Shown: in pieces, positions 728 to 8,293 of the stretch
Numbering within the stretch: the first letter of the stretch is position 1
Layout: every line of letters starts with the position of its first letter
Assembly: GCA_026391215.1 (NCBI GenBank)
Contig: JAPLDX010000093.1
Location: 1-12,689, forward strand
From: Bacteroidia bacterium
Lineage (GTDB): Bacteria > Bacteroidota > Bacteroidia > Bacteroidales > VadinHA17
Direction: 5' to 3'
Length of the DNA: 12,689 nt
Notes under the pieces: model-generated
What the model saw: only the letters and a program-made list of their open reading frames with translations
Databases searched by the model: none
Told to the model about the DNA's origin: nothing
Translations under genes and position numbers: made by a program

Positions 728-747
728 CCTGCCTGCCGGCAGGCAGG
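728..747. repeat. Perfect 20-bp REP-like palindrome CCTGCCTGCCGGCAGGCAGG
   Basis: Exact self-reverse-complement. GC-rich, in an AT-rich intergenic region just past the amidohydrolase stop codon. Confidence 0.75.
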
Positions 748-773
748 GAATTGGCGATGAAGTATATTGGAGA

Positions 774-1706
774 CTAATCCACAGTATCCTTCAACTTCAG
801 GAAGCGCGCAGCATTGTTGTAAAAAATATCACGCTTTTCTTCTTTGGAGAGAAACTTTGCTGATTCAATTCCTTCAATGGCCATGCCAATAGCCTCCGGC
901 CATATCATTTGATCGGATCCGAACATTAATCGTTTTCCAAAACCTGCTCTAATCAAATCTTTGAGATATTCATGGAATTCTTCCTGTGGAATGATCCAGT
1001 CAATAGTTGCAAGATCAGCATACACTTGCGGGTAGACAGACATAATTGCCTTTGTTTCTTCCAGGTACGGCCAACCACCATGCATAATGTATAATCTCAG
1101 CTTTGGATGTCTCACCAGGACTTCTTCAAGAAGAATAGGATTGCCATATGTTACACGGAATTCAGGACAACATGTATATGGAGTTTCCGCAGGCCCAAGA
1201 CCTGAATGAACTCCTACCGGTATGTCCAGTTCTTCAGCAAGAGCCAGGTATGGTTCAAATAGCGAATCTGTAAGAGTAAGTCCGGCATATTGCGCCACCA
1301 GTTCTCCAAGTGCTCCAAGTCGGCCATCAGTAAATTGCTCCCGTAATTGTTCCAAATCTGGCAGTAAAGTTACTTCATCGAAATGTACTCCTCCTATTAT
1401 GCGTTCAGGTTCTTTAGATTTCCAGCGATATAAGACCTCTAAAGGTCCACTCGTTACAGCTAAAGTAATATTATAACGGCGCATTTCCGCTAGAGTTGCC
1501 TCCATAATTGCTTCGTCACTTGTCGAAGAGGATGACCTTCCTGTGATTGGATTGGGTATGCCTGATTCACCCATATACCCTGCAGGCCAGGAGTGCAAGT
1601 GCATATCAATAATTGGAAGGTTCTTATTTTTAGAGGTTTGACAAGATATCAAACAGAAGATTCCCACAAGTCCAATAACGATAGGCAGCAAGTTTTTTTT
1701 CGTCAT
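774..1706 (-). CDS. Amidohydrolase family protein (Amidohydro_2-like TIM barrel), probable lipoprotein
   Basis: IIDMHLH (HxH metal motif), LGE, PVGVHSG, IMHGG, RLMFGSD and IFYNNAARFL. Hydrophobic signal peptide ending in LISC. Confidence 0.9.
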   Translation of the reverse strand: MTKKNLLPIVIGLVGIFCLISCQTSKNKNLPIIDMHLHSWPAGYMGESGIPNPITGRSSSSTSDEAIMEATLAEMRRYNITLAVTSGPLEVLYRWKSKEPERIIGGVHFDEVTLLPDLEQLREQFTDGRLGALGELVAQYAGLTLTDSLFEPYLALAEELDIPVGVHSGLGPAETPYTCCPEFRVTYGNPILLEEVLVRHPKLRLYIMHGGWPYLEETKAIMSVYPQVYADLATIDWIIPQEEFHEYLKDLIRAGFGKRLMFGSDQMIWPEAIGMAIEGIESAKFLSKEEKRDIFYNNAARFLKLKDTVD

Positions 1707-1803
1707 AAGTCACGGATAAGTTATTTAGTCAAGTTACGAAATTTTTACAAGTCGACATAGAAATAATTGCTACTGCTTGTAAGATCAATGATCTGCGGGA
1801 TAC

Positions 1804-1902
1804 GGTCATGCAGGTTGAGGAGCGTAGCGACGAAATCCCGAGAACGAAGTGAATCGGGATCGTGCAAGTCGTGCAGGTCGTGCTGGTCATGCAGGTCGTG
1901 CA
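1804..1902 (+). repeat. 9-bp tandem repeat (GGTCRTGCA consensus) interrupted by a REP-like insert
   Basis: ggtcatgca-ggt[1816-1860 insert]cgtgca-agtcgtgca-ggtcgtgct-ggtcatgca-ggtcgtgca. The insert contains the hairpin ATCCCGA (1835-1841) / TCGGGAT (1854-1860). Confidence 0.75.
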
Positions 1903-1905
1903 ATT

Positions 1906-1985
1906 GTATGAGCGTTCGATCGTTTGAGCGTTCGAGCGTTTTACCTTCATACCTTCGTACCGTCATACCGTTGAACCGTTGAGCC
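1906..1985 (+). repeat. Bipartite octamer array, copy 1: 4 x GTTYGAKC-like, hinge GTTTTACC, then TTCRTACC-like units
   Basis: gtatgagc gttcgatc gtttgagc gttcgagc gttttacc ttcatacc ttcgtacc gtcatacc gttgaacc gttgagcc. Confidence 0.9.
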
Positions 1986-2049
1986 GTATAGTCTTGGTTC
2001 CCTTGTAACTCATTTTTCCCTTCGCAATATTTTTCTAAGGATTTTTTGT

Positions 2050-2057
2050 TATATTTG
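2050..2057 (+). promoter_or_regulatory. Bacteroidota -7 promoter box (TATATTTG) for ORF6N gene 1
   Basis: Matches TAnnTTTG and ends 47 bp before the ATG at 2105. No clear -33 TTTG. Confidence 0.45.
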
Positions 2058-2104
2058 GTATGCATTTCCTATAGATCCTACGTTAAGGTTTTTGTGCTAA
2101 ACTA

Positions 2105-2647
2105 ATGAAGGGGTTAATTCATCAGAGAGAAATTATTTCCCAGATATATTTTATCAGAGGGAAAAAAGTCATGCTGGATTTTCATCTGGCAATGCTCTAC
2201 AATGTTGAGACCAGGGTACTGAAACAACAAGTCAGAAGGAATATTGACAGATTCCCGGATGACTTTATGTTCCAATTGGCTGTTTCTGAATGGAAGGAGC
2301 TTATCACAAATTGTGATAACCTTGGAGCGATGAAATATTCTCCTTCGCTTCCATATGCATTTACCGAACAGGGAATAGCCATGCTTTCAGGAGTTTTGCG
2401 CAGCTCCAGAGCGATTAAAATAAATATCTCAATCATGCGTGCTTTTATCAGAATGCGTGAAATAATTGATGAAAACAAGGAATTAAGGAATAAACTTGAC
2501 GCTCTGGAAGCCAGATATGATGAACAATTCAGGATTGTTTTTGAAGCAATGAGAGAATTAATCACAACTAAACAAAAGCCTGTTCCTCCGGTTGGTTTCA
2601 GAATTAACAAACAAAGCAAAAACGAAGGAGATTCAGATAATGACTGA
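2105..2647 (+). CDS. ORF6N domain-containing DNA-binding protein (paralog 1)
   Basis: IRGKKVMLDFHLAMLYNVETRVLKQQVRRNIDRFPDDFMFQL...PYAFTEQGIAMLSGVLRS...IMRAF, followed by a coiled-coil and a C-terminal PVGF. Confidence 0.92.
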   Translation: MKGLIHQREIISQIYFIRGKKVMLDFHLAMLYNVETRVLKQQVRRNIDRFPDDFMFQLAVSEWKELITNCDNLGAMKYSPSLPYAFTEQGIAMLSGVLRSSRAIKINISIMRAFIRMREIIDENKELRNKLDALEARYDEQFRIVFEAMRELITTKQKPVPPVGFRINKQSKNEGDSDND

Positions 2648-2654
2648 TTGAAAA

Positions 2655-2674
2655 TCTCCCCCTCCCGCCCTCAC
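2655..2674 (-). repeat. Inverted partial copy of the purine-rich GGAGGGCG octamer family
   Basis: tctccccctcccgccctcac is the reverse complement of gtgagggcgggagggggaga. It lies directly after the ORF6N-1 stop codon. Confidence 0.7.
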
Positions 2675-2689
2675 TACTCATTTCTTCCC

Positions 2690-2919
2690 GCAGGTCGTGC
2701 AATTGTTTGACCGTTCGATCGTTTGATCGTTTGAGCGTTTGATCGTTTGAGCGTTTGATCGTTCGATCGTTCGATCGTTTGAGCGTTCGAGCGTACGATC
2801 GTTTGAGCGTTTGAGCGTTTGAGCGTTTGACAGTTCGAGCGTTTTACCTTCATACCTTCGTACCTTCGAACCTTCATACCTTCGAAATTCGTACCTTCAA
2901 ACCTTCATACGATCAAACC
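2690..2919 (+). repeat. Bipartite octamer array, copy 2 (expanded): GCAGGTCGTGCAATT lead-in, 17 x GTTYGAKC-like, hinge GTTTTACC, about 9 x TTCRWACC
   Basis: Units counted by hand: block A 2705-2840, hinge 2841-2848, block B 2849-2919. It shares an exact 17-bp lead-in (2690-2706 = 1891-1907) and an exact 32-bp junction (2833-2864 = 1930-1961) with copy 1. Confidence 0.95.
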
Positions 2920-2947
2920 ATTATTTGCAGGTAACTGGATTGACCAG

Positions 2948-3118
2948 CTACTTATCGTCCTGAGTCTTCTTTGGGAAACGAAGGTTCAGGAAGATCGTTG
3001 TCTTTCCTTCCCATTCCGCTGTGACATCAATAATTTTCAGATCAGGATACTTTTTTTGGAGTGCAGCTCTCCAGTCAGGTGAGCTTTCTGCCTGTTTCTT
3101 TTCTTCTTCGTTTTCCAT
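2948..3118 (-). CDS. Small hypothetical protein, 56 aa (not in the ORF track)
   Basis: MENEEEKKQAESSPDWRAALQKKYPDLKIIDVTAEWEGKTTIFLNLRFPKKTQDDK*. A/T-rich region before the ATG and a consensus promoter upstream. Confidence 0.65.
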   Translation of the reverse strand: MENEEEKKQAESSPDWRAALQKKYPDLKIIDVTAEWEGKTTIFLNLRFPKKTQDDK

Positions 3119-3158
3119 AATGCAAAGTGTTTTAGTTAAACAATAAGTAACTTTTTCG

Positions 3159-3274
3159 CATCAGGAACAATCCGGAAAGTCTGAATTCTGCTTTAACATT
3201 TTTGACAAGACTGCCCACATCGCTTTACCACCGTGGTGTCAACTCGGTTGGTATCCATTTAAGGATTCCTGATG
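3159..3274 (-). ncRNA. Candidate structured 5' leader or cis-regulatory RNA of the 56-aa ORF
   Basis: Closing stem CATCAGGAA (3159-3167) / TTCCTGATG (3266-3274), inner stem TTGACA (3202-3207) / TGTCAA (3237-3242), and short hairpins at 3227-3237 and 3240-3250. No RNA family recognised. Confidence 0.4.
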
Positions 3275-3281
3275 TATAATG

Positions 3282-3312
3282 CAAAGATACGAAGAATTTG
3301 CTACAAAACAAA
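3282..3312 (-). promoter_or_regulatory. Bacteroidota sigma-A-type promoter TTTG-N19-TATCTTTG
   Basis: On the minus strand: TTTG (3312-3309), a 19-nt spacer, then TATCTTTG (3289-3282). Confidence 0.75.
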
Positions 3313-3315
3313 AGA

Positions 3316-3384
3316 GGCTACCGGCTACCAGAAAAAGGAGGGCGGGATGGCGGGAGGGCGGGAGGGCAAGAGAGCGTGAGGGTG
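3316..3384 (+). repeat. Purine-rich repeat block, left copy: (GGCTACC)2, A-run, 6 x GGAGGGCG-like octamer
   Basis: ggagggcg ggatggcg ggagggcg ggagggca agagagcg tgagggtg (3337-3384). Positions 3320-3366 match 4211-4257 at 44 of 47 bases. Confidence 0.9.
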
Positions 3385-3443
3385 GTTTGCCTGATCAATT
3401 ATTTTCTATAAAGCTTTTGCACTACAAAGAGCATCATTTTTAG

Positions 3444-3451
3444 TATCTTTG
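3444..3451 (+). promoter_or_regulatory. Bacteroidota -7 promoter box (TATCTTTG) for ORF6N gene 2
   Basis: TAnnTTTG ending 80 bp before the ATG at 3532. The nearest TTTG (3416-3419) is 24 nt upstream, longer than the usual spacing. Confidence 0.55.
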
Positions 3452-3492
3452 TTAATGTAGTCTCGCTTTGCTTTTAATTAACATTTATTGAT

Positions 3493-3521
3493 AGAACTGG
3501 CCACAGATAGTGACCCCTTAA
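3493..3521 (+). promoter_or_regulatory. Candidate operator: degenerate copy of the intragenic palindrome of ORF6N gene 2
   Basis: agaactggccacagatagtgaccccttaa versus agaactggtcacaaattgtgaccggttaa (3723-3751): 24 of 29 bases identical with no gaps. It lies between the -7 box and the ATG. Confidence 0.5.
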
Positions 3522-3531
3522 CTTAGGAATC

Positions 3532-4044
3532 ATGAGCACAGATATCCTTAAAGCGGAATATGAAATCCTGATCTTTACAATCCGCGGAAGAAAGGTGATG
3601 ATAGATTATGACCTTGCAGCGCTCTACGAAGTATCGACAAAAGCCCTTAAGCAACAGGTTAAGAGAAACAGAACCAGATTCCCCGAGGATTTCATGTTTA
3701 TACTTAATCCGGCAGAAAAGGAAGAACTGGTCACAAATTGTGACCGGTTAAAAAGTCTGCAGCACTCTTCAGTTAATCCTATGGCATTCACCGAACAGGG
3801 AGTCGCAATGCTTTCAACAGTCTTAAGATCTGAAAAAGCAATAAGTATAAACATTGAAATAATGAGAGCTTTTGCCCGTTACAGAGCAATTCTCAGGGAA
3901 AATGAAGAACTCAGGAAAGACGTTAAGAAACTCGATGAAAAGCTAAACGAGGCCATCAAGTTCCTTATTGAACGAATCGATGAATTACACCAGGGTAAAG
4001 ATGAACCGTTAAAGCCCATCGGATTCAAATATAAAAAGTCATAG
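3532..4044 (+). CDS. ORF6N domain-containing DNA-binding protein (paralog 2)
   Basis: IRGRKVMIDYDLAALYEVSTKALKQQVKRNRTRFPEDFMFIL...ELVTNCDR...PMAFTEQGVAMLSTVLRS...IMRAF, followed by a coiled-coil and a C-terminal PIGF. Confidence 0.92.
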   Translation: MSTDILKAEYEILIFTIRGRKVMIDYDLAALYEVSTKALKQQVKRNRTRFPEDFMFILNPAEKEELVTNCDRLKSLQHSSVNPMAFTEQGVAMLSTVLRSEKAISINIEIMRAFARYRAILRENEELRKDVKKLDEKLNEAIKFLIERIDELHQGKDEPLKPIGFKYKKS

Positions 4045-4132
4045 AATAAAATAACAATTAAGTTGCCTGAGATTTTGTTCAGAGACAGGAAGGAAGATTT
4101 TATTGAAATGATCTTCTTGTTCAAATGACACA

Positions 4133-4155
4133 GGATGCTGCGACATCCGTTTTTT
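4133..4155 (+). terminator. Possible weak intrinsic terminator after ORF6N gene 2
   Basis: GGATG-ctgcga-CATCC followed by GTTTTTT. The stem is only 5 bp. Confidence 0.35.
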
Positions 4156-4161
4156 AATATA

Positions 4162-4290
4162 TCCCCCACTCTCCCATTCTCCCCATCCTTTTTGATCCAT
4201 GATCCATGCCACCGGCTACCATAAAAAGGAGGGCGAGATGGCGAGAGGGCGGGAGGGTGGGATGATGGTATGACGGTACGATGGTGCGAC
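4162..4290. repeat. Composite repeat block: pyrimidine octamers, (TGATCCA)2, right copy of the purine-rich block, inverted block-B octamers
   Basis: tcccccactctcccattctccccatcc (4162-4188); tgatcca x2 (4193-4206); 47-bp direct repeat (4211-4257); ggtatgac ggtacgat ggtgcgac (4267-4290). Confidence 0.85.
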
Positions 4291-4302
4291 AGTGTGTTAT
4301 GG

Positions 4303-4992
4303 TTAGTTCTGTTTGTTTAAACTATCTATATGTAAAACATTAACACCCCTGTTTTTAAAAACTGTCATCATGCTATCTTTCATTCCGGTTGATTCAGATA
4401 AAATTGCTTCTTCAATAAGATTAACTGTATAGTTTCTATTCTGCGAGGCTTCAACAGTTGCATTTATACATTCAGCAGCATCCAGACCCACTAAATACAA
4501 TTCACTTACTTTATTGCCGGTCAGGATACTATCGAGATTTGTATTTTTAAAAGAATCTTTTGCTCTTTTAATAACCACTAAACCAGAAGTTGTTTTTATC
4601 CGTTTATCAAATTGTGCCCCCGGACTACCTTTTGCGTAAGAACTATTTAATAAATTAATTAATGGATTTGATATTTCACTTCGAATATGAATTACCAGAA
4701 TGTTGTGATCATTAAAACAATCAACTATCCAGTTTATGTTTTTTATCAATTCATCTGAATTCTTCCGGAAGAATGGATACATAGAAAGATGTCCGGTTGT
4801 AGCCTCCTGGATATCAATAACTAAAAGGGCGGATTTACGTTTGCTGTAATTTTCTATAGGTTGCCCTTTAGTTACAACAGATTCATATTGCCCTGAAATT
4901 ATCAGGTTAATAAAAACAATTAAAACGAAAAGAATTATTGTTCCCAGAATTCCAAAGATAATTTTCTTTACCAGTCCTTTTTTCTTAGTCAA
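4303..4992 (-). CDS. Cysteine hydrolase (isochorismatase-like family) with an N-terminal membrane anchor
   Basis: ALLVIDIQE, IKRAKDSF and LVGLDAAECINAT provide the Asp-Lys-Cys triad. Start moved to the in-frame TTG at 4992 (MTKKKGLVKKIIFGILG...) because the track start at 5106 overlaps the upstream gene. The start position is uncertain. Confidence 0.85.
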   Translation of the reverse strand: MTKKKGLVKKIIFGILGTIILFVLIVFINLIISGQYESVVTKGQPIENYSKRKSALLVIDIQEATTGHLSMYPFFRKNSDELIKNINWIVDCFNDHNILVIHIRSEISNPLINLLNSSYAKGSPGAQFDKRIKTTSGLVVIKRAKDSFKNTNLDSILTGNKVSELYLVGLDAAECINATVEASQNRNYTVNLIEEAILSESTGMKDSMMTVFKNRGVNVLHIDSLNKQN

Positions 4993-5041
4993 AGTTTTAT
5001 TTTTACTTACAAATCCCGATAGCTGAGAAGTAATTGTCCGG

Positions 5042-5878
5042 TTAATGCTCAATCCTGACAATCCAATCCTGAACTTCGGGAAACTTAGAAAAGACTTTAT
5101 CATCATGACCCGGAATTATCAGATCAGGATCCGGGACTAAAGTTTTGATTCTTTTCATGGCTTCAACATAAGCCAGAGGATCCATGCAAACACTTACCGG
5201 CAGTAATTTTTCATAATTCAGATAGAACCAGATTGCATCAGATGCAAGTAAAATTTCGTTCTTTTTTGAATCCGGATTGACTAAAAGATATTGATTTTCA
5301 AAAGTGTGTCGGGATCCTGTAAATACCTTAATGCCGGGCATAATTTCCACATCATCACCATCAATGAGGTTTAGTCTGCCTTGTAAATTGATTTCAATAA
5401 TATTGTGTACGTCATTTTTCTCAAATCCCACTGAATAGCCGTTCTCCTGCCAGGCTGCTCCCGTGAAATAATCATAGTCATCTTTCTGCATCCAGATCTG
5501 TGCTTTGGGAAACAGATTAATTCCTCCTATGTGATCATTATGAGGGTGTGTTAAAATAATATCAGAAATGTCTTGCGGGGATATGTTGATCCTTTGTAAA
5601 ACCAGGTCTGGTCTTATGTAATTTGCATTTGCATTCGCAGAATCGAGAAATCCGGCATCGACAAGGATATTCTTGCCATTTTGACCTTTTATCAGCCAGA
5701 ACATATCACAAACGTTGATGCTATCATTTGGATCTGCTCCAACAACCCAGTCTTTGGCCTGAATTTTATATCCACCATTGAATTTGACAGCATAGACCTG
5801 ATATTCATCATTATGCCTACAGTTTGTCAGTAAGGCAAAGATGAAGAAGGCTGAGATCAGTGTGAGTTTTTTTGGCAT
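5042..5878 (-). CDS. MBL-fold metallo-hydrolase, N-acyl homoserine lactonase-like family, probable lipoprotein
   Basis: ILVDAG, THPHNDHIGG (HxHxDH), LLASDA and IIPGHD. Signal peptide ending in LLTNC. The substrate cannot be determined from sequence. Confidence 0.88.
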   Translation of the reverse strand: MPKKLTLISAFFIFALLTNCRHNDEYQVYAVKFNGGYKIQAKDWVVGADPNDSINVCDMFWLIKGQNGKNILVDAGFLDSANANANYIRPDLVLQRINISPQDISDIILTHPHNDHIGGINLFPKAQIWMQKDDYDYFTGAAWQENGYSVGFEKNDVHNIIEINLQGRLNLIDGDDVEIMPGIKVFTGSRHTFENQYLLVNPDSKKNEILLASDAIWFYLNYEKLLPVSVCMDPLAYVEAMKRIKTLVPDPDLIIPGHDDKVFSKFPEVQDWIVRIEH

Positions 5879-6022
5879 ATTAATTTATTTGTTTAATGTA
5901 ATCCGAATTTACACTCCCGTCCCGGCAGCCACAAAACAGAATACCCGGCTAACAACAAGCTGCCTGCCCGTTTATTGCGATGCTCCCGCCAGAAGAATTC
6001 CCCCGGAAATTGCGTTGCAGAA

Positions 6023-6054
6023 CAAAGGTAGGAAACGTAGCAATTAAAGTCAAA
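6023..6054 (-). promoter_or_regulatory. Bacteroidota promoter TTTG-N20-TACCTTTG for the MBL hydrolase gene
   Basis: On the minus strand: TTTG (6054-6051), a 20-nt spacer, then TACCTTTG (6030-6023). Confidence 0.75.
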
Positions 6055-6097
6055 TAAATAATATGGCGTCAGGCGACCGGCAAAGGATGGGTTGAAA

Positions 6098-6172
6098 GTG
6101 TGATCGTTCGATCGTTTGATCGTTTGAGCGTTTGAGCGTTCTACCTTCATACCTTCGAACCTTCGAACCTTC
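6098..6172 (+). repeat. Bipartite octamer array, copy 3 (no adjacent ORF6N gene)
   Basis: gtgtgatc gttcgatc gtttgatc gtttgagc gtttgagc gttctacc ttcatacc ttcgaacc ttcgaacc ttc. Same orientation and A-hinge-B order as copies 1 and 2. Confidence 0.9.
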
Positions 6173-6298
6173 TTCCGTTGCGCCTTTCTTTACTGACAGA
6201 TATACTATGGTTTTTTGCCAGGGCCAGCCATTCCGGGCTTTCAGACTTTAGACCAGAAAATACCTTTGAATAAACGTGATTGAGTCAAAACATTTATT

Positions 6299-6306
6299 TA
6301 ACTTTG
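6299..6306 (+). promoter_or_regulatory. -7 box TAACTTTG immediately before the ATG at 6311 (possible leaderless transcript)
   Basis: TAnnTTTG ends 4 nt before the start codon. A second TACCTTTG lies at 6261-6268. Confidence 0.5.
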
Positions 6307-6310
6307 TTTT

Positions 6311-6724
6311 ATGGAAAACTGTAAAGAAGATACCAGCCAGAATTTCGAGACTTTATTTTTCCTGATTCTATTCTCGCTTTTTGTATTTGCTTCTTCACGT
6401 AATCCGGATAGTAATACTTCATCTTCAGCAAAATTCCCTTCACAAAATAACCTGGTATCTGGAGATATTTCAAGTCAACGCAATGCCATTATATTACCCT
6501 CTGTTGGTTTACCGGATCTTCAAAAATATTGTGAATGTGCTCTCCGCAATACCAGCCTTAATCCATTTTCAATCCAAAATAGAATATCGGACTACAACCG
6601 CAGAATAACTCAAAGTTTTATTCTAATTCAAAAAACAAGGCTTTCAATAGAACCTGTTCTTCCCTGGAGGTTATATTATCATCTTCCTTTAAACGAAGAT
6701 GATAACCTGCCGGTTTTAAGTTAA
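6311..6724 (+). CDS. Hypothetical protein with an N-terminal hydrophobic segment
   Basis: 137-aa ORF with the segment LFFLILFSLFVFA, a promoter box upstream, and the same orientation as the next gene. No family recognised. Confidence 0.6.
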   Translation: MENCKEDTSQNFETLFFLILFSLFVFASSRNPDSNTSSSAKFPSQNNLVSGDISSQRNAIILPSVGLPDLQKYCECALRNTSLNPFSIQNRISDYNRRITQSFILIQKTRLSIEPVLPWRLYYHLPLNEDDNLPVLS

Positions 6725-6796
6725 ATTTTTATCAGGTTTATTTTCCCCCTTCCCTTACCAGGGAGGTGATTATTCTTTAACTTAAAACTTATTATT

Positions 6797-7807
6797 ATGA
6801 AAACAAATTTTATTATTGTTGCCATCATTATTGCAGCATTTTCGTCCGGAGGATGTACGACGAAAGAAAACTTTGATTATAAAGTTACAGTTGTACCTGA
6901 ATCAAAAAGTTCTGTTATAATACCAAATGATATGAATACAGCCGCTGAGATAATTAGCAAGAGGCTGAATAACTCTTTTGGTATCCCGCAAGAAAGTATG
7001 AAACTTGATGTTACTGAGAATCAAATTTCATTGACTATATCAAAAGTTGATACCAGTAAAATAGCCTCGATTAAAGAAATAATAACCGGCTACGTCAGAA
7101 TGGAATTCTGGGAAACATATGAGAACGCGGAAATCATGGGATATCTGTCGAAAGCAAACGATTTACTGAGAGAAATGAAGACTGTTGCTGATGTTAAAAA
7201 TGCTAATACGCAGAATGAATTTATCGCTCAGAATCCATTGCTTGGAATACTAAAACCCAGGATAACTGATCAGGGTGAACCAATACCTTCATGTATGATA
7301 GGGCTTGCCAGCGGAACAGATACTGCAAAAGTTAACAGATATTTGCAAATGCCAGAGATAAAAGCTTTGTTGCCTCGCGAACTTAAGTTAATCTGGAGTC
7401 TGAATCCGTATAAATATGATCCTTCAACAACATTATATGAACTCCATGCAATCAAAGTGACAACTCAGGATGGGAAAGCTCCTCTTGACGGGAGTGTAAT
7501 TATTTCTGCTAAACCAATTACAGGACCTTCTGAATCAGATATTAAAATCGATTTAGCGATGAGTGCTGAAGGGGCCGGCAAGTGGGCAGGAATAACTCGA
7601 GAAAATGTTAACCGATGCATCGCAATTGTTCTTAACGGCTATGTCAGATCCTACCCCAGGGTCATGAATGAAATTTCCGGAGGAAGTACCGAAATCACAG
7701 GAGATTTTACAGCTGAAGAAGCAAATGATCTTGCCAGCATTCTTAATTCAGGGAGTTTGCCATTTGAACTTAAAATCGTTGAAGAACAAATTATAAAAAG
7801 GCAATAA
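6797..7807 (+). CDS. Lipoprotein made of a SecD/SecDF P1 periplasmic (base + head) domain only
   Basis: EFWETYEN, YELHAIK, APLDGSVI and MSAEGAGKWAGIT...IAIVLNGYVRSYPRVMNEISGGSTEITGDFTAEEANDLASILNSGSLPFELKIVEEQ match the SecD P1 pattern. Signal peptide ending in SSGGC. No transmembrane domain follows. Confidence 0.82.
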   Translation: MKTNFIIVAIIIAAFSSGGCTTKENFDYKVTVVPESKSSVIIPNDMNTAAEIISKRLNNSFGIPQESMKLDVTENQISLTISKVDTSKIASIKEIITGYVRMEFWETYENAEIMGYLSKANDLLREMKTVADVKNANTQNEFIAQNPLLGILKPRITDQGEPIPSCMIGLASGTDTAKVNRYLQMPEIKALLPRELKLIWSLNPYKYDPSTTLYELHAIKVTTQDGKAPLDGSVIISAKPITGPSESDIKIDLAMSAEGAGKWAGITRENVNRCIAIVLNGYVRSYPRVMNEISGGSTEITGDFTAEEANDLASILNSGSLPFELKIVEEQIIKRQ

Positions 7808-7897
7808 ATTCCAGGCAGCAGATGGATTAGAAAAATGGTCAGGCATGTATCTGATCAGATGGTTGTGAGGTAAACAGCCGGAAAACCTTAATTATGT

Positions 7898-8070
7898 TTA
7901 TTCATGCTTCAGGGAATCAACAGGATTCCCTGAGGCTGCTTTATGCGATTGATAACCTGTCGATAAAATCGCAATTAATACAGATAAAATTCCTCCTGCA
8001 ATAAAAGATAAAACACCAATGTTAGTTTTATATGCAAAATTATTCAACCGCCAGTTTAAAATTATACACG
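7898..8070 (-). pseudogene. C-terminal remnant of a MacB/FtsX-type ABC permease
   Basis: LNNFAYKTNIG...FIAGGILSVLIAILSTGYQSHKAASGNPVDSLKHE parallels the C-terminus of 8294-10684 (WLKFLAF...SQTIKAANSNPIDILKYE). The rest of the gene is missing. Confidence 0.8.
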
Positions 8071-8293
8071 AAAGCAGCAAAACAAATTGTCTGTTTAATA
8101 TCTGGTAAAGCAACCTGATCTGATAATCAATAACAAACGAAATAAATGATATGCAGCAATTGTATTAACATGCCGTCTTTAAAACAAAGGTTACAGGCTG
8201 GAAGAATGTAACTCACGATTATTTTAATCGTCAAAAAACATAGAGGAAGAGGTGAATTTTCATTTAACATTAAAACATTAAAACCTCATTACC

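Follow-up and report, generated by a model that had tools for sequence, protein, structure and literature searches.

The 12,689-bp stretch of DNA analyzed here (the window) is the entire contig C60 of a metagenome-assembled genome (MAG) of an uncultured Bacteroidales bacterium (3.39 Mb in 135 contigs, 41% G + C, 98.9% complete). Its region from 1.8 to 4.3 kb is an island with two ORF6N genes, ORF6N-1 (2105–2647, plus strand, 180 aa) and ORF6N-2 (3532–4044, plus strand, 170 aa), each of which is bracketed by direct repeats containing tandem arrays of short units. The better and most economical reading of this arrangement, and the one that we consider fairly probable, is that generic spacer arrays lie next to accessory genes that are candidates for a role in defence. 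The repeats of the island would then be copies of the short-period spacer arrays of the genome itself, rather than termini belonging to a dedicated cassette system, and the island would be the left part of a strain-specific accessory segment of about 6.5 kb (approximately 1800–8280). The initial annotation of this DNA had proposed non-autonomous single-gene cassettes that are gained or lost at arrays acting as landing pads. Of that proposal, the roaming single-gene units were supported, and bracketing by direct repeats turned out to be rare in this genome; the dedicated landing pads, the empty alleles, and the recombination joints were not supported.

Arrays of this kind are spread over the whole genome. 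Tandem Repeats Finder (TRF), applied genome-wide for periods of 6–10 nt, with the matches merged into composite arrays, yielded 117 composite arrays, 84 of them intergenic; the open reading frame (ORF) calls, crude ones on which all gene counts reported here rest, cover 93% of the genome bases. Of the 84 intergenic arrays, 67 lie no farther than 50 nt from the closest gene end (a stop codon in 47 cases and a start codon in 20), and the spacers that harbor the arrays are tandem in 52 cases, convergent in 17, and divergent in 15. No rule of strand composition was found for the arrays, with 32 G-rich vs. 28 C-rich ones after stop codons. Degenerate unit patterns for the families present in the island, matched against the genome and against a block-shuffled version of it, detected 16 arrays of family A on 9 contigs, 35 arrays of family B on 16 contigs, 15 arrays of a 9-mer family on 11 contigs, and 3 arrays of a G-rich octamer family in the genome; the shuffled genome yielded a single array of family B and none of the other three. 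Genes located between arrays were tabulated for 25 array pairs at most 3.5 kb apart. Mostly, these are ordinary genes, among them queA, murB, yceG, and those for a GHMP kinase, a glycosyltransferase, a KDPG aldolase, a nitroreductase, FKBP, PAP2, and a two-component pair, and only a few are accessory genes (HipA with its helix-turn-helix (HTH) partner, DUF4468, a 23S-rRNA-IVS protein, and an AAA/DUF4143 ATPase). Thus, the arrays are a genome-wide spacer repeat that flanks queA, murB, yceG, and the like, rather than a set of dedicated landing pads. Because the same arrays fill gaps between genes throughout the genome, the repeats of the island probably represent ordinary spacer DNA rather than the termini of mobile cassettes.

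The octamer and nonamer arrays are long-simple-sequence-repeat DNA, a class already described in other bacteria. Published examples include long simple sequence repeats with units of 5–11 nt in prokaryotes (Mrazek et al., 2007, as summarized in PMC4679880), the GGGNATC heptamers of Xanthomonas and Nostoc (Rehm et al., 2015, PMC4692102), and the TAACTGA heptamers of Beggiatoaceae, cyanobacteria, and five Bacteroidetes (PMC4679880). As far as these accounts go, the class is marked by head-to-tail units of 7–9 nt at many loci, an intergenic excess, proximity to start or stop codons, a variable copy number, and the lack of a known function, and we count the arrays of this genome as alike in that they are head-to-tail arrays beyond chance expectation, occur at many, mostly intergenic loci, lie near gene ends, and have no known function; their copy number may vary as well. 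Compared with the repeats as portrayed in these sources, the arrays of the window differ in that arrays of several unrelated unit families succeed one another in a fixed order, in that a diverged inverted copy often comes after an array, giving a long hairpin, and in that no G-rich strand rule was found. The sequences of the array units differ from genome to genome. Such arrays, which are mostly located within 50 nt of gene ends, would lengthen and shorten by slippage. Two joints found in assembled contigs (Logan) from four metagenome runs of one study (X1–X4), which were compared with the window, suggest contraction and expansion, at the level of assembled contigs and with short sides: 2779 to 2854 (X1–X3, side of 20 nt) and 1903 to 1860 with 10 additional letters (X1 and X2). 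All statements on X1–X4 apply among the matches listed, and rare variants are lost in assembly. The metagenome runs that contain stretches of the window are from freshwater sediment.

Inside the island, the bracketing by direct repeats that the initial annotation had described was verified for both genes. ORF6N-1 lies between repeats of the same orientation at 1891–1961 and 2690–2864, which share exact blocks of 32 nt (1930–1961 and 2833–2864), 27 nt (1913–1939 and 2768–2794), and 17 nt (1891–1907 and 2690–2706). The left side is composed, on the plus strand, of a nonamer array with the unit TCGTGCAGG (1860–1904, about 5 units), which belongs to the 9-mer family mentioned above, followed by the octamer array A (unit GAKCGTTY, 1909–1941, 4 units), which is part of the left direct repeat, and the octamer array B (unit WACCDTCR, 1942–1987, about 5 units), which is A in diverged and inverted form, the latter two supported by both TRF and the unit patterns. 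On the right side (2690–2919, plus strand), a nonamer tail, the heptamer CAATTGT, an A array of 17.5 units, and a B array of 8 units follow each other and form a long imperfect hairpin. ORF6N-2 lies between direct repeats at 3320–3366 and 4211–4257 that are identical at 44 of 47 positions. The similarity extends to 50 nt with 92% identity (3317–3366 and 4208–4257), and a search of the whole genome found this 50-mer at these two sites only. The left copy (3317–3382, plus strand) consists of two GCTACCR heptamers, the sequence AAAAAGGA, and a G-rich octamer array; the right copy (4208–4262, plus strand), 92% identical to the left one over the 50 nt, is bridged by a contig from X1 (3720–4474) without differences. 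TRF itself delimited the period-8 and period-9 arrays as 1860–1902, 1909–1941, 1942–1987, 2705–2844 (17.5 copies), 2845–2919, 3337–3382, 4228–4262, and 4258–4285. The last of these is an inverted B-type octamer array (minus strand), located 18 nt from the stop codon of the isochorismatase-family gene at the right border of the island. A 19-nt inverted repeat with 95% complementarity frames the whole island (1951–1969 and 4267–4285); its two arms are two B arrays in opposite orientations, and B arrays occur in both orientations genome-wide.

The window harbors a third A/B composite (6098–6172, plus strand, delimited by TRF as 6101–6172), which the initial annotation had not listed. It has 90% identity over 52 nt to 1910–1961 and no adjoining ORF6N gene. 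As read directly from the sequence, the reverse complement of the A unit and the B unit agree in 6 of their 8 positions, and since the B unit is thus a diverged inverted A unit, an A array with a B array after it constitutes an imperfect inverted repeat. In agreement with this arrangement, the RNA fold of 2700–2925 has a minimum free energy (MFE) of −87 kcal/mol, compared with −53 ± 4.4 kcal/mol for shuffled sequences (z of −7.7; −4.7 for the minus strand), and the values were z of −3.3 for 6098–6176 and −1.6 for 1905–1990. The block of the pyrimidine strand that had been reported to follow each ORF6N gene was found, too. C-rich blocks are present on the plus strand after the stop codon of ORF6N-1 (2651–2689, complementary to 4245–4263) and after ORF6N-2 (4162–4190), both being complementary to the G-rich array. 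The second block pairs with the G-rich array downstream of it, and the plus-strand fold of 4145–4290, in which the two are paired, has an MFE of −53 kcal/mol (z of −2.0).

The two genes are the sole ORF6N matches in the genome, with scores for PF10543 of 105.2 bits (ORF6N-1, E 2.2e-30) and 107.6 bits (ORF6N-2, E 3.9e-31) against a gathering cut-off of 27.8, covering model positions 1–86 and 3–86, respectively, of 86. According to the Pfam description, ORF6N is a predicted DNA-binding domain. Both proteins also match three PADLOC models of the candidate single-gene phage-defence family PDC-S05, of which PDLC04856 is the best (E 3.5e-56 for ORF6N-1 and 2.1e-55 for ORF6N-2; residues 6–167; the model has 177 positions), and the 'anti-repressor' family of PHROG; no NCBIfam model matched either protein. 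A PDC-S05 representative with a RhuM domain is reported to reduce plating by a factor of about 1000 for T7 and T5 and of about 10 for T4 (bioRxiv 10.1101/2024.09.26.614923). The genes of the window resemble PDC-S05 in being stand-alone genes in a variable region with a nearly full-length match to the model. They differ from it in that the phage-active representative, as presented in that preprint, carries Virulence_RhuM, whereas the proteins of the window match only ORF6N in Pfam. ORF6N-1 and ORF6N-2 are thus candidates for an anti-phage role, as judged from these family matches. A module of a prophage antirepressor was considered and rejected: only the two ORF6N proteins match PHROG, and the neighbors are metabolic or transport genes.

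ORF6N-1 and ORF6N-2 are 52% identical to each other and, in a quick tree of 100 rows, are distant paralogues, not sisters. ORF6N-2 belongs to a Bacteroidota clade of 14 rows (support of 100 in the Shimodaira-Hasegawa-like approximate likelihood ratio test, SH-aLRT) that includes Saprospiraceae and Flavobacteriaceae, its best match being 76% identical; ORF6N-1 pairs with a relative from the genus (SH-aLRT 95, 62–64% identity). Therefore, the flanking repeats, which are 91–92% identical, are much younger than the gene pair. Neighboring pairs of ORF6N genes are frequent (loci L177, L188, L185, L173, and L175), and sister paralogues make up the pair in 4 of these 5. Phyla are intermixed in the tree, with close homologues in other orders and phyla. 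The family is patchy, with matches, many of them fragmentary, in 35 of the 61 genomes of the genus that were searched; here and in the other genus counts, the related genomes are not independent samples. Of 13 pairs of close orthologues from different genomes, 12 have homologous DNA over the gene and no more than 340 nt besides, the exception being the syntenic pair L147/L149. The notion of single-gene roaming units was borne out by this patchy spread and by the confinement of homology to the gene and its immediate surroundings. ORF6N-type genes would accordingly wander between genomes as units of about 0.55–0.9 kb, each a gene with its promoter region, on any vehicle. The ORF6N genes of the window have only the coding sequence in common with their nearest relatives (69–77% nucleotide identity), and hence no conserved module ends can be defined.

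Each ORF6N gene probably constitutes its own transcription unit, to judge from candidate promoter boxes and, for the second gene, a terminator. The consensus TAnnTTTG, which we take to be the Bacteroidetes-type −7 box, occurs as TATATTTG 48 nt before the start of ORF6N-1 (2050–2057, plus strand) and as TATCTTTG 81 nt before that of ORF6N-2 (3444–3451, plus strand), and a terminator-like hairpin with a T run follows ORF6N-2 (4133–4154, plus strand). The initial annotation had assigned a −7 box to each module, and the motif is indeed located before both genes. It is not above chance in the window, where it was found 16 times compared with 14 expected occurrences, and we dropped it as evidence for this reason. 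An orphan ORF of 56 codons between the two modules (2948–3118, minus strand) is probably not a gene and was rejected as one: it has no Pfam, NCBIfam, PADLOC, or PHROG match, and among proteins of 30–98 residues in 5.8 billion clusters, only the ORF itself was found.

Several observations weigh against the view of the island repeats as ordinary spacer DNA. The bracketing repeats have unique junctions in common (CAATTGT around ORF6N-1; two GCTACCR heptamers with AAAAAGGA around ORF6N-2), which identifies them as genuine local duplications of a composite array rather than independent arrays. Such bracketing is rare and is found mostly at genes of mobile type. When all ORFs of at least 80 codons were examined for a same-strand repeat with at least about 85% identity common to both 500-nt flanks, direct flanking repeats of at least 40 nt were found for 13 of 2,423 ORFs, among them ORF6N-1 (78 nt) and ORF6N-2 (61 nt). 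Of the eleven further ORFs with such repeats, six encode IS200-type Y1 transposases (three), DUF559 proteins (two), or a GIY-YIG protein (one). Among the 108 genes with spacers of at least 150 nt on both sides, the six bracketed ones are the two ORF6N genes, the three Y1 transposase genes, and one BNR gene. Arrays within 300 nt on both sides occur around 10 single genes, and the same composite is present twice only around ORF6N-1, ORF6N-2, and the DUF4468 gene. Across the genus, arrays lie within 600 nt of ORF6N genes in 12 of 29 loci, compared with 0 of 11 control loci and 191 of the 2,641 genes of this genome, and 3 of the 29 loci have flanking repeats of at least 40 nt (5 of 29 at a threshold of 30 nt). 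In locus L014, a repeat of about 124 nt runs from the end of one gene through a 10-mer array into the first codons of the gene that follows, a layout as would be left by a single-crossover insertion or a partial duplication. Finally, the breaks between strains at 1799–1801 (X1–X3) and a loose end at 4294 (X2), both described below, coincide with the edges of the island, which fits an inserted block.

These points would be accommodated if the unit of array, ORF6N gene, and array were a non-autonomous cassette, such that recombination between the two copies excises a circle with the gene and one array, which re-inserts by homologous recombination at arrays of the same family as landing pads, without a dedicated recombinase. 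The families dispersed over 9–16 contigs would offer many targets, and the same layout with other units is present in L014, L027, and L029. The ORF6N genes are not recent duplicates, so that two separate events took place, which also speaks for this scenario. It is nevertheless unlikely on balance. No junction of a deletion or a circle was detected among the matches listed, no empty allele was found, and only 5 of the 117 arrays lie in or beside the island, most arrays flanking housekeeping genes. The units differ around closely related ORF6N genes (CTCAAC in L027 vs. ACTGAAAC in L029), and array homology can, therefore, not explain transfer between species. The edges of homology around orthologues are not fixed, and genes other than ORF6N are bracketed as well in the loci of relatives (3 of about 50, compared with 5 of about 25 ORF6N genes).

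Bracketing also extends to other genes and lineages. The remaining bracketed genes of this genome are a MacB gene adjoining a DUF559 gene, the BNR gene, the DUF4468 gene, one without a family match, and one between tRNA-like repeats. Composite bracketing beyond ORF6N was seen for the DUF4468 gene on contig C121 and for a neighboring gene in locus L017. On C121 (2538–5139, locus L043), the DUF4468 gene, itself bracketed by a 70-nt direct repeat, is separated from a HipA/HTH pair by copies of the same A/B composites in inverted orientation. The three Y1_Tnp genes (C101 10655–11089, C62 6929–7495, and C100 45451–45897) are each bracketed by direct repeats of 68–258 nt and may represent elements associated with repetitive extragenic palindromes (REP), similar to RAYTs. 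In other lineages, 3 of 71 ORF6N loci have flanking repeats of at least 40 nt and 7 of 71 have repeats of at least 30 nt, some of which are REP-like elements or tandem gene copies, and arrays are present near ORF6N in 10 of 80 loci. Our search of the literature retrieved no description of ORF6N genes bracketed by arrays. An element of the insertion sequence (IS) or miniature inverted-repeat (MITE) type was considered and discarded; the repeats are direct and 50–78 nt long, and the contig has no transposase.

Segments flanked by direct repeats can be amplified or deleted by homologous recombination, and a Campbell-type insertion via a single crossover duplicates the ends. The island resembles such cases in that a gene is located between two repeats of 50–80 nt in the same orientation, and L014 has a duplication of about 124 nt of ordinary flanking DNA; it differs in that no amplified, deleted, or circular form was seen among the X1–X4 matches listed. 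With the reading as generic spacer arrays, the direct repeats around each gene would have arisen when a composite array was copied into the neighboring spacer, a step that we infer. Gene conversion between nearby arrays, unequal recombination between them, or a single-crossover insertion might account for the copying. Once in place, the repeats would let ordinary homologous recombination delete each gene, and no such event was seen.

The neighborhood of the island was compared with other strains and relatives. The left neighbor is an Amidohydro_2 gene (774–1706, minus strand) and the right neighbor is the isochorismatase-family gene (4303–5106, minus strand). Thus, the hydrolase genes of like orientation that had been reported to enclose the island were both confirmed; however, the hydrolases on the right are themselves inside the variable segment. 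Likewise, the reported lack of an integrase or transposase holds, as none of the 13 main ORFs of the contig matches recombinase or transposase families. The left edge of the strain-variable segment is at 1799–1801, where contigs from X1, X2, and X3 leave the sequence of the window, and one contig from X2 starts to match the window at 4294 after 15 unrelated letters, which have no match within the window. The closest metagenome contig, L058 (93.5% nucleotide identity over the amidohydrolase gene), loses homology at 1757 and has a different array upstream. In L059, the amidohydrolase and MacB are 87% and 89% identical at the amino acid level, and the 4.7 kb between them are occupied by other genes (for glyoxalase, EcsC, an ATPase, and hypotheticals), compared with a distance of 6.6 kb in the window. 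The whole segment from 1.8 to 8.3 kb, and not the ORF6N pair alone, differs in the nearest relatives. As in defence islands and hotspots, a strain-specific accessory block is located between genes that are kept by relatives (amidohydrolase and MacB); unlike in those, the window has only two defence candidates, both of them ORF6N genes.

ORF6N was found in the examined flanks of none of the 80 metagenome loci with a relative of the amidohydrolase, and no locus keeps the synteny. The 80 loci have no neighbor in common with the window or with each other, except for L059 and L060, which are identical to one another. In 40 relatives, the amidohydrolase had a single good match (40% identity). The MBL-fold gene of the neighborhood is present in 10 of 150 genomes of the genus, never beside an isochorismatase or ORF6N gene and without synteny, and its best matches in curated databases are lactonase families, far below the cut-offs. 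An empty allele with one repeat and no ORF6N gene, as had been predicted, was not found, a search of low power given that the lack of synteny allowed no comparison of alleles. The predicted joints of 1961 to 2865 and of 3366 to 4258 were absent from the contigs of X1–X4, as were circular forms, among the matches listed; since contigs drop rare variants, a missing joint says little, and the power was low in both cases. Two other joints were rejected as deletions. The joint 2883 to 6142 (one contig of X1, depth 3.8, side of 27 nt) was considered as a deletion between two B arrays and was discarded because its side is shorter than the assembler word and lies inside repeat DNA, and 747 to 7769 (X4, side of 20 nt) was discarded for the same reason.

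The contigs also bear on whether the island was assembled correctly. That the MAG contig was misjoined through shared arrays would be conceivable in view of similar A/B composites elsewhere in the genome, for example at 1945–2207 of C80, and because no contig of X1–X4 among the matches listed spans the interior of the long A array (about 2734–2835). It is, however, very improbable, as independent Logan contigs bridge the other junctions with 0–1 differences: 1809–2303 (X4), 1932–2734 (X2), 2835–3749 (X1), 3316–4243 (X2), and 3720–4474 (X1). These contigs support the order of the parts, except for the interior of the long A array; the runs may be the source samples of the MAG. The depth of the X1 contigs is about 8 along 2005–6700, and contig depth is unfit for ranking genes.

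Two observations concern other parts of the window. After the amidohydrolase gene, 679–760 contains a hairpin resembling a bidirectional terminator and a perfect 20-nt palindrome, CCTGCCTGCCGGCAGGCAGG. Other strains from the same samples carry a similar sequence after position 1801, and in L058, a copy is located upstream of the amidohydrolase gene. Inside the variable segment, 6797–7807 encodes a protein of 336 aa that has only the P1-head domain of SecDF and no membrane domains.

The island also shares features with the integron-like cassette arrays of Bacteroidota, to which rAID-1 is related (bioRxiv 10.1101/471110). In both, small accessory genes of the same orientation each have a hairpin-forming repeat downstream, which reappears ahead of the following gene. 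The island might, therefore, be conceived as decayed cassettes of this type, mobilized by a Xer-type recombinase, with hairpin sites that were overwritten by arrays and a C-rich block and a G-rich array as remnants of the arms. A cassette array of this kind exists in the same genome on contig C24 (L236, 3169–9661), where five sites of about 400 nt with the outer boxes CTAACACGGACAATAAAGG and CCTTTATTGCCGGGCCGTTAG are located downstream of a tyrosine recombinase gene. In addition, locus L023 of the genus relative G063 (990–2003) has an ORF6N gene (1453–1977) between two sites of the C24 type, with the box ACGGACAATAAA at 990 and 1992; in this one relative, an integron-like array has the ORF6N gene among its cassettes. 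The C-rich block that follows each ORF6N gene, and the pairing of the second one with the next G-rich array, would also be in line with this origin. The differences prevail and render it improbable: the repeats of the window are tandem octamers, the three conserved boxes of the C24 sites have no match in the window with up to three mismatches, and the box seen in L023 occurs in 1 of 29 ORF6N loci of the genus and in none of 80 loci from other lineages. The 12.7-kb contig also lacks a recombinase; a tyrosine recombinase was found in none of its 13 ORFs, and six are encoded elsewhere in the genome.

The DNA-binding domain raises the question of whether the arrays could be iteron-like operators to which the ORF6N proteins bind, so that genes and arrays form one functional unit. 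The 'anti-repressor' match in PHROG and the enrichment of arrays beside ORF6N genes of the genus (the 12 of 29 loci mentioned above) would agree with this. We regard it as highly unlikely, however, given that two ORF6N genes face 117 arrays of many unrelated units, that arrays are near only 10 of the 80 ORF6N loci in other lineages, that the array units differ around closely related ORF6N genes, and that a conserved palindrome inside the gene is a more likely site for the proteins themselves.

This palindrome is located at 2298–2322 in the coding sequence of ORF6N-1 and at 3725–3749 in that of ORF6N-2. It was surveyed in 100 ORF6N genes from many phyla (loci L014–L042 and L138–L217), with codon-shuffled sequences as controls. 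The best palindrome had at least 9 pairs, with at most one mismatch, in 88 of the 100 genes, compared with 15 of the 100 controls, and its center was 30–75 nt upstream of an FTEQG-like motif in 76 of the 93 genes that have the motif (median 49.5). Compensatory changes are found between the arms (GTCACAA/TTGTGAC, GTCGCAA/TTGCGAC, ATCACAA/TTGTGAT, and ATTCCAA/TTGGAAT), and the palindrome is translated in two frames, as xTNCDx in 30 genes and RSQxVT-like in 60. This conservation points to a cis-acting site inside a gene that is itself a defence candidate. No description of an internal palindrome of ORF6N genes was found in a search of the literature, and the palindrome is perhaps a more testable lead than the bracketing arrays.

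As it stands, the island brings together two known things side by side, intergenic simple-repeat arrays that lack an explanation and a roaming candidate anti-phage gene. A more far-reaching possibility, which we deem doubtful, is that dispersed arrays or hairpin composites serve as substrates for the insertion, duplication, and loss of small defence genes by homologous recombination of the host, that is, a cassette economy without a recombinase. If the bracketing repeats were recombination substrates, the 7–9-nt arrays of environmental Bacteroidales would gain a role in gene turnover, and single-gene defence modules would have an integrase-free route of gain and loss. Were an array-mediated cassette economy to prove true, it would provide a function for repeats of bacterial genomes that have so far been unexplained.

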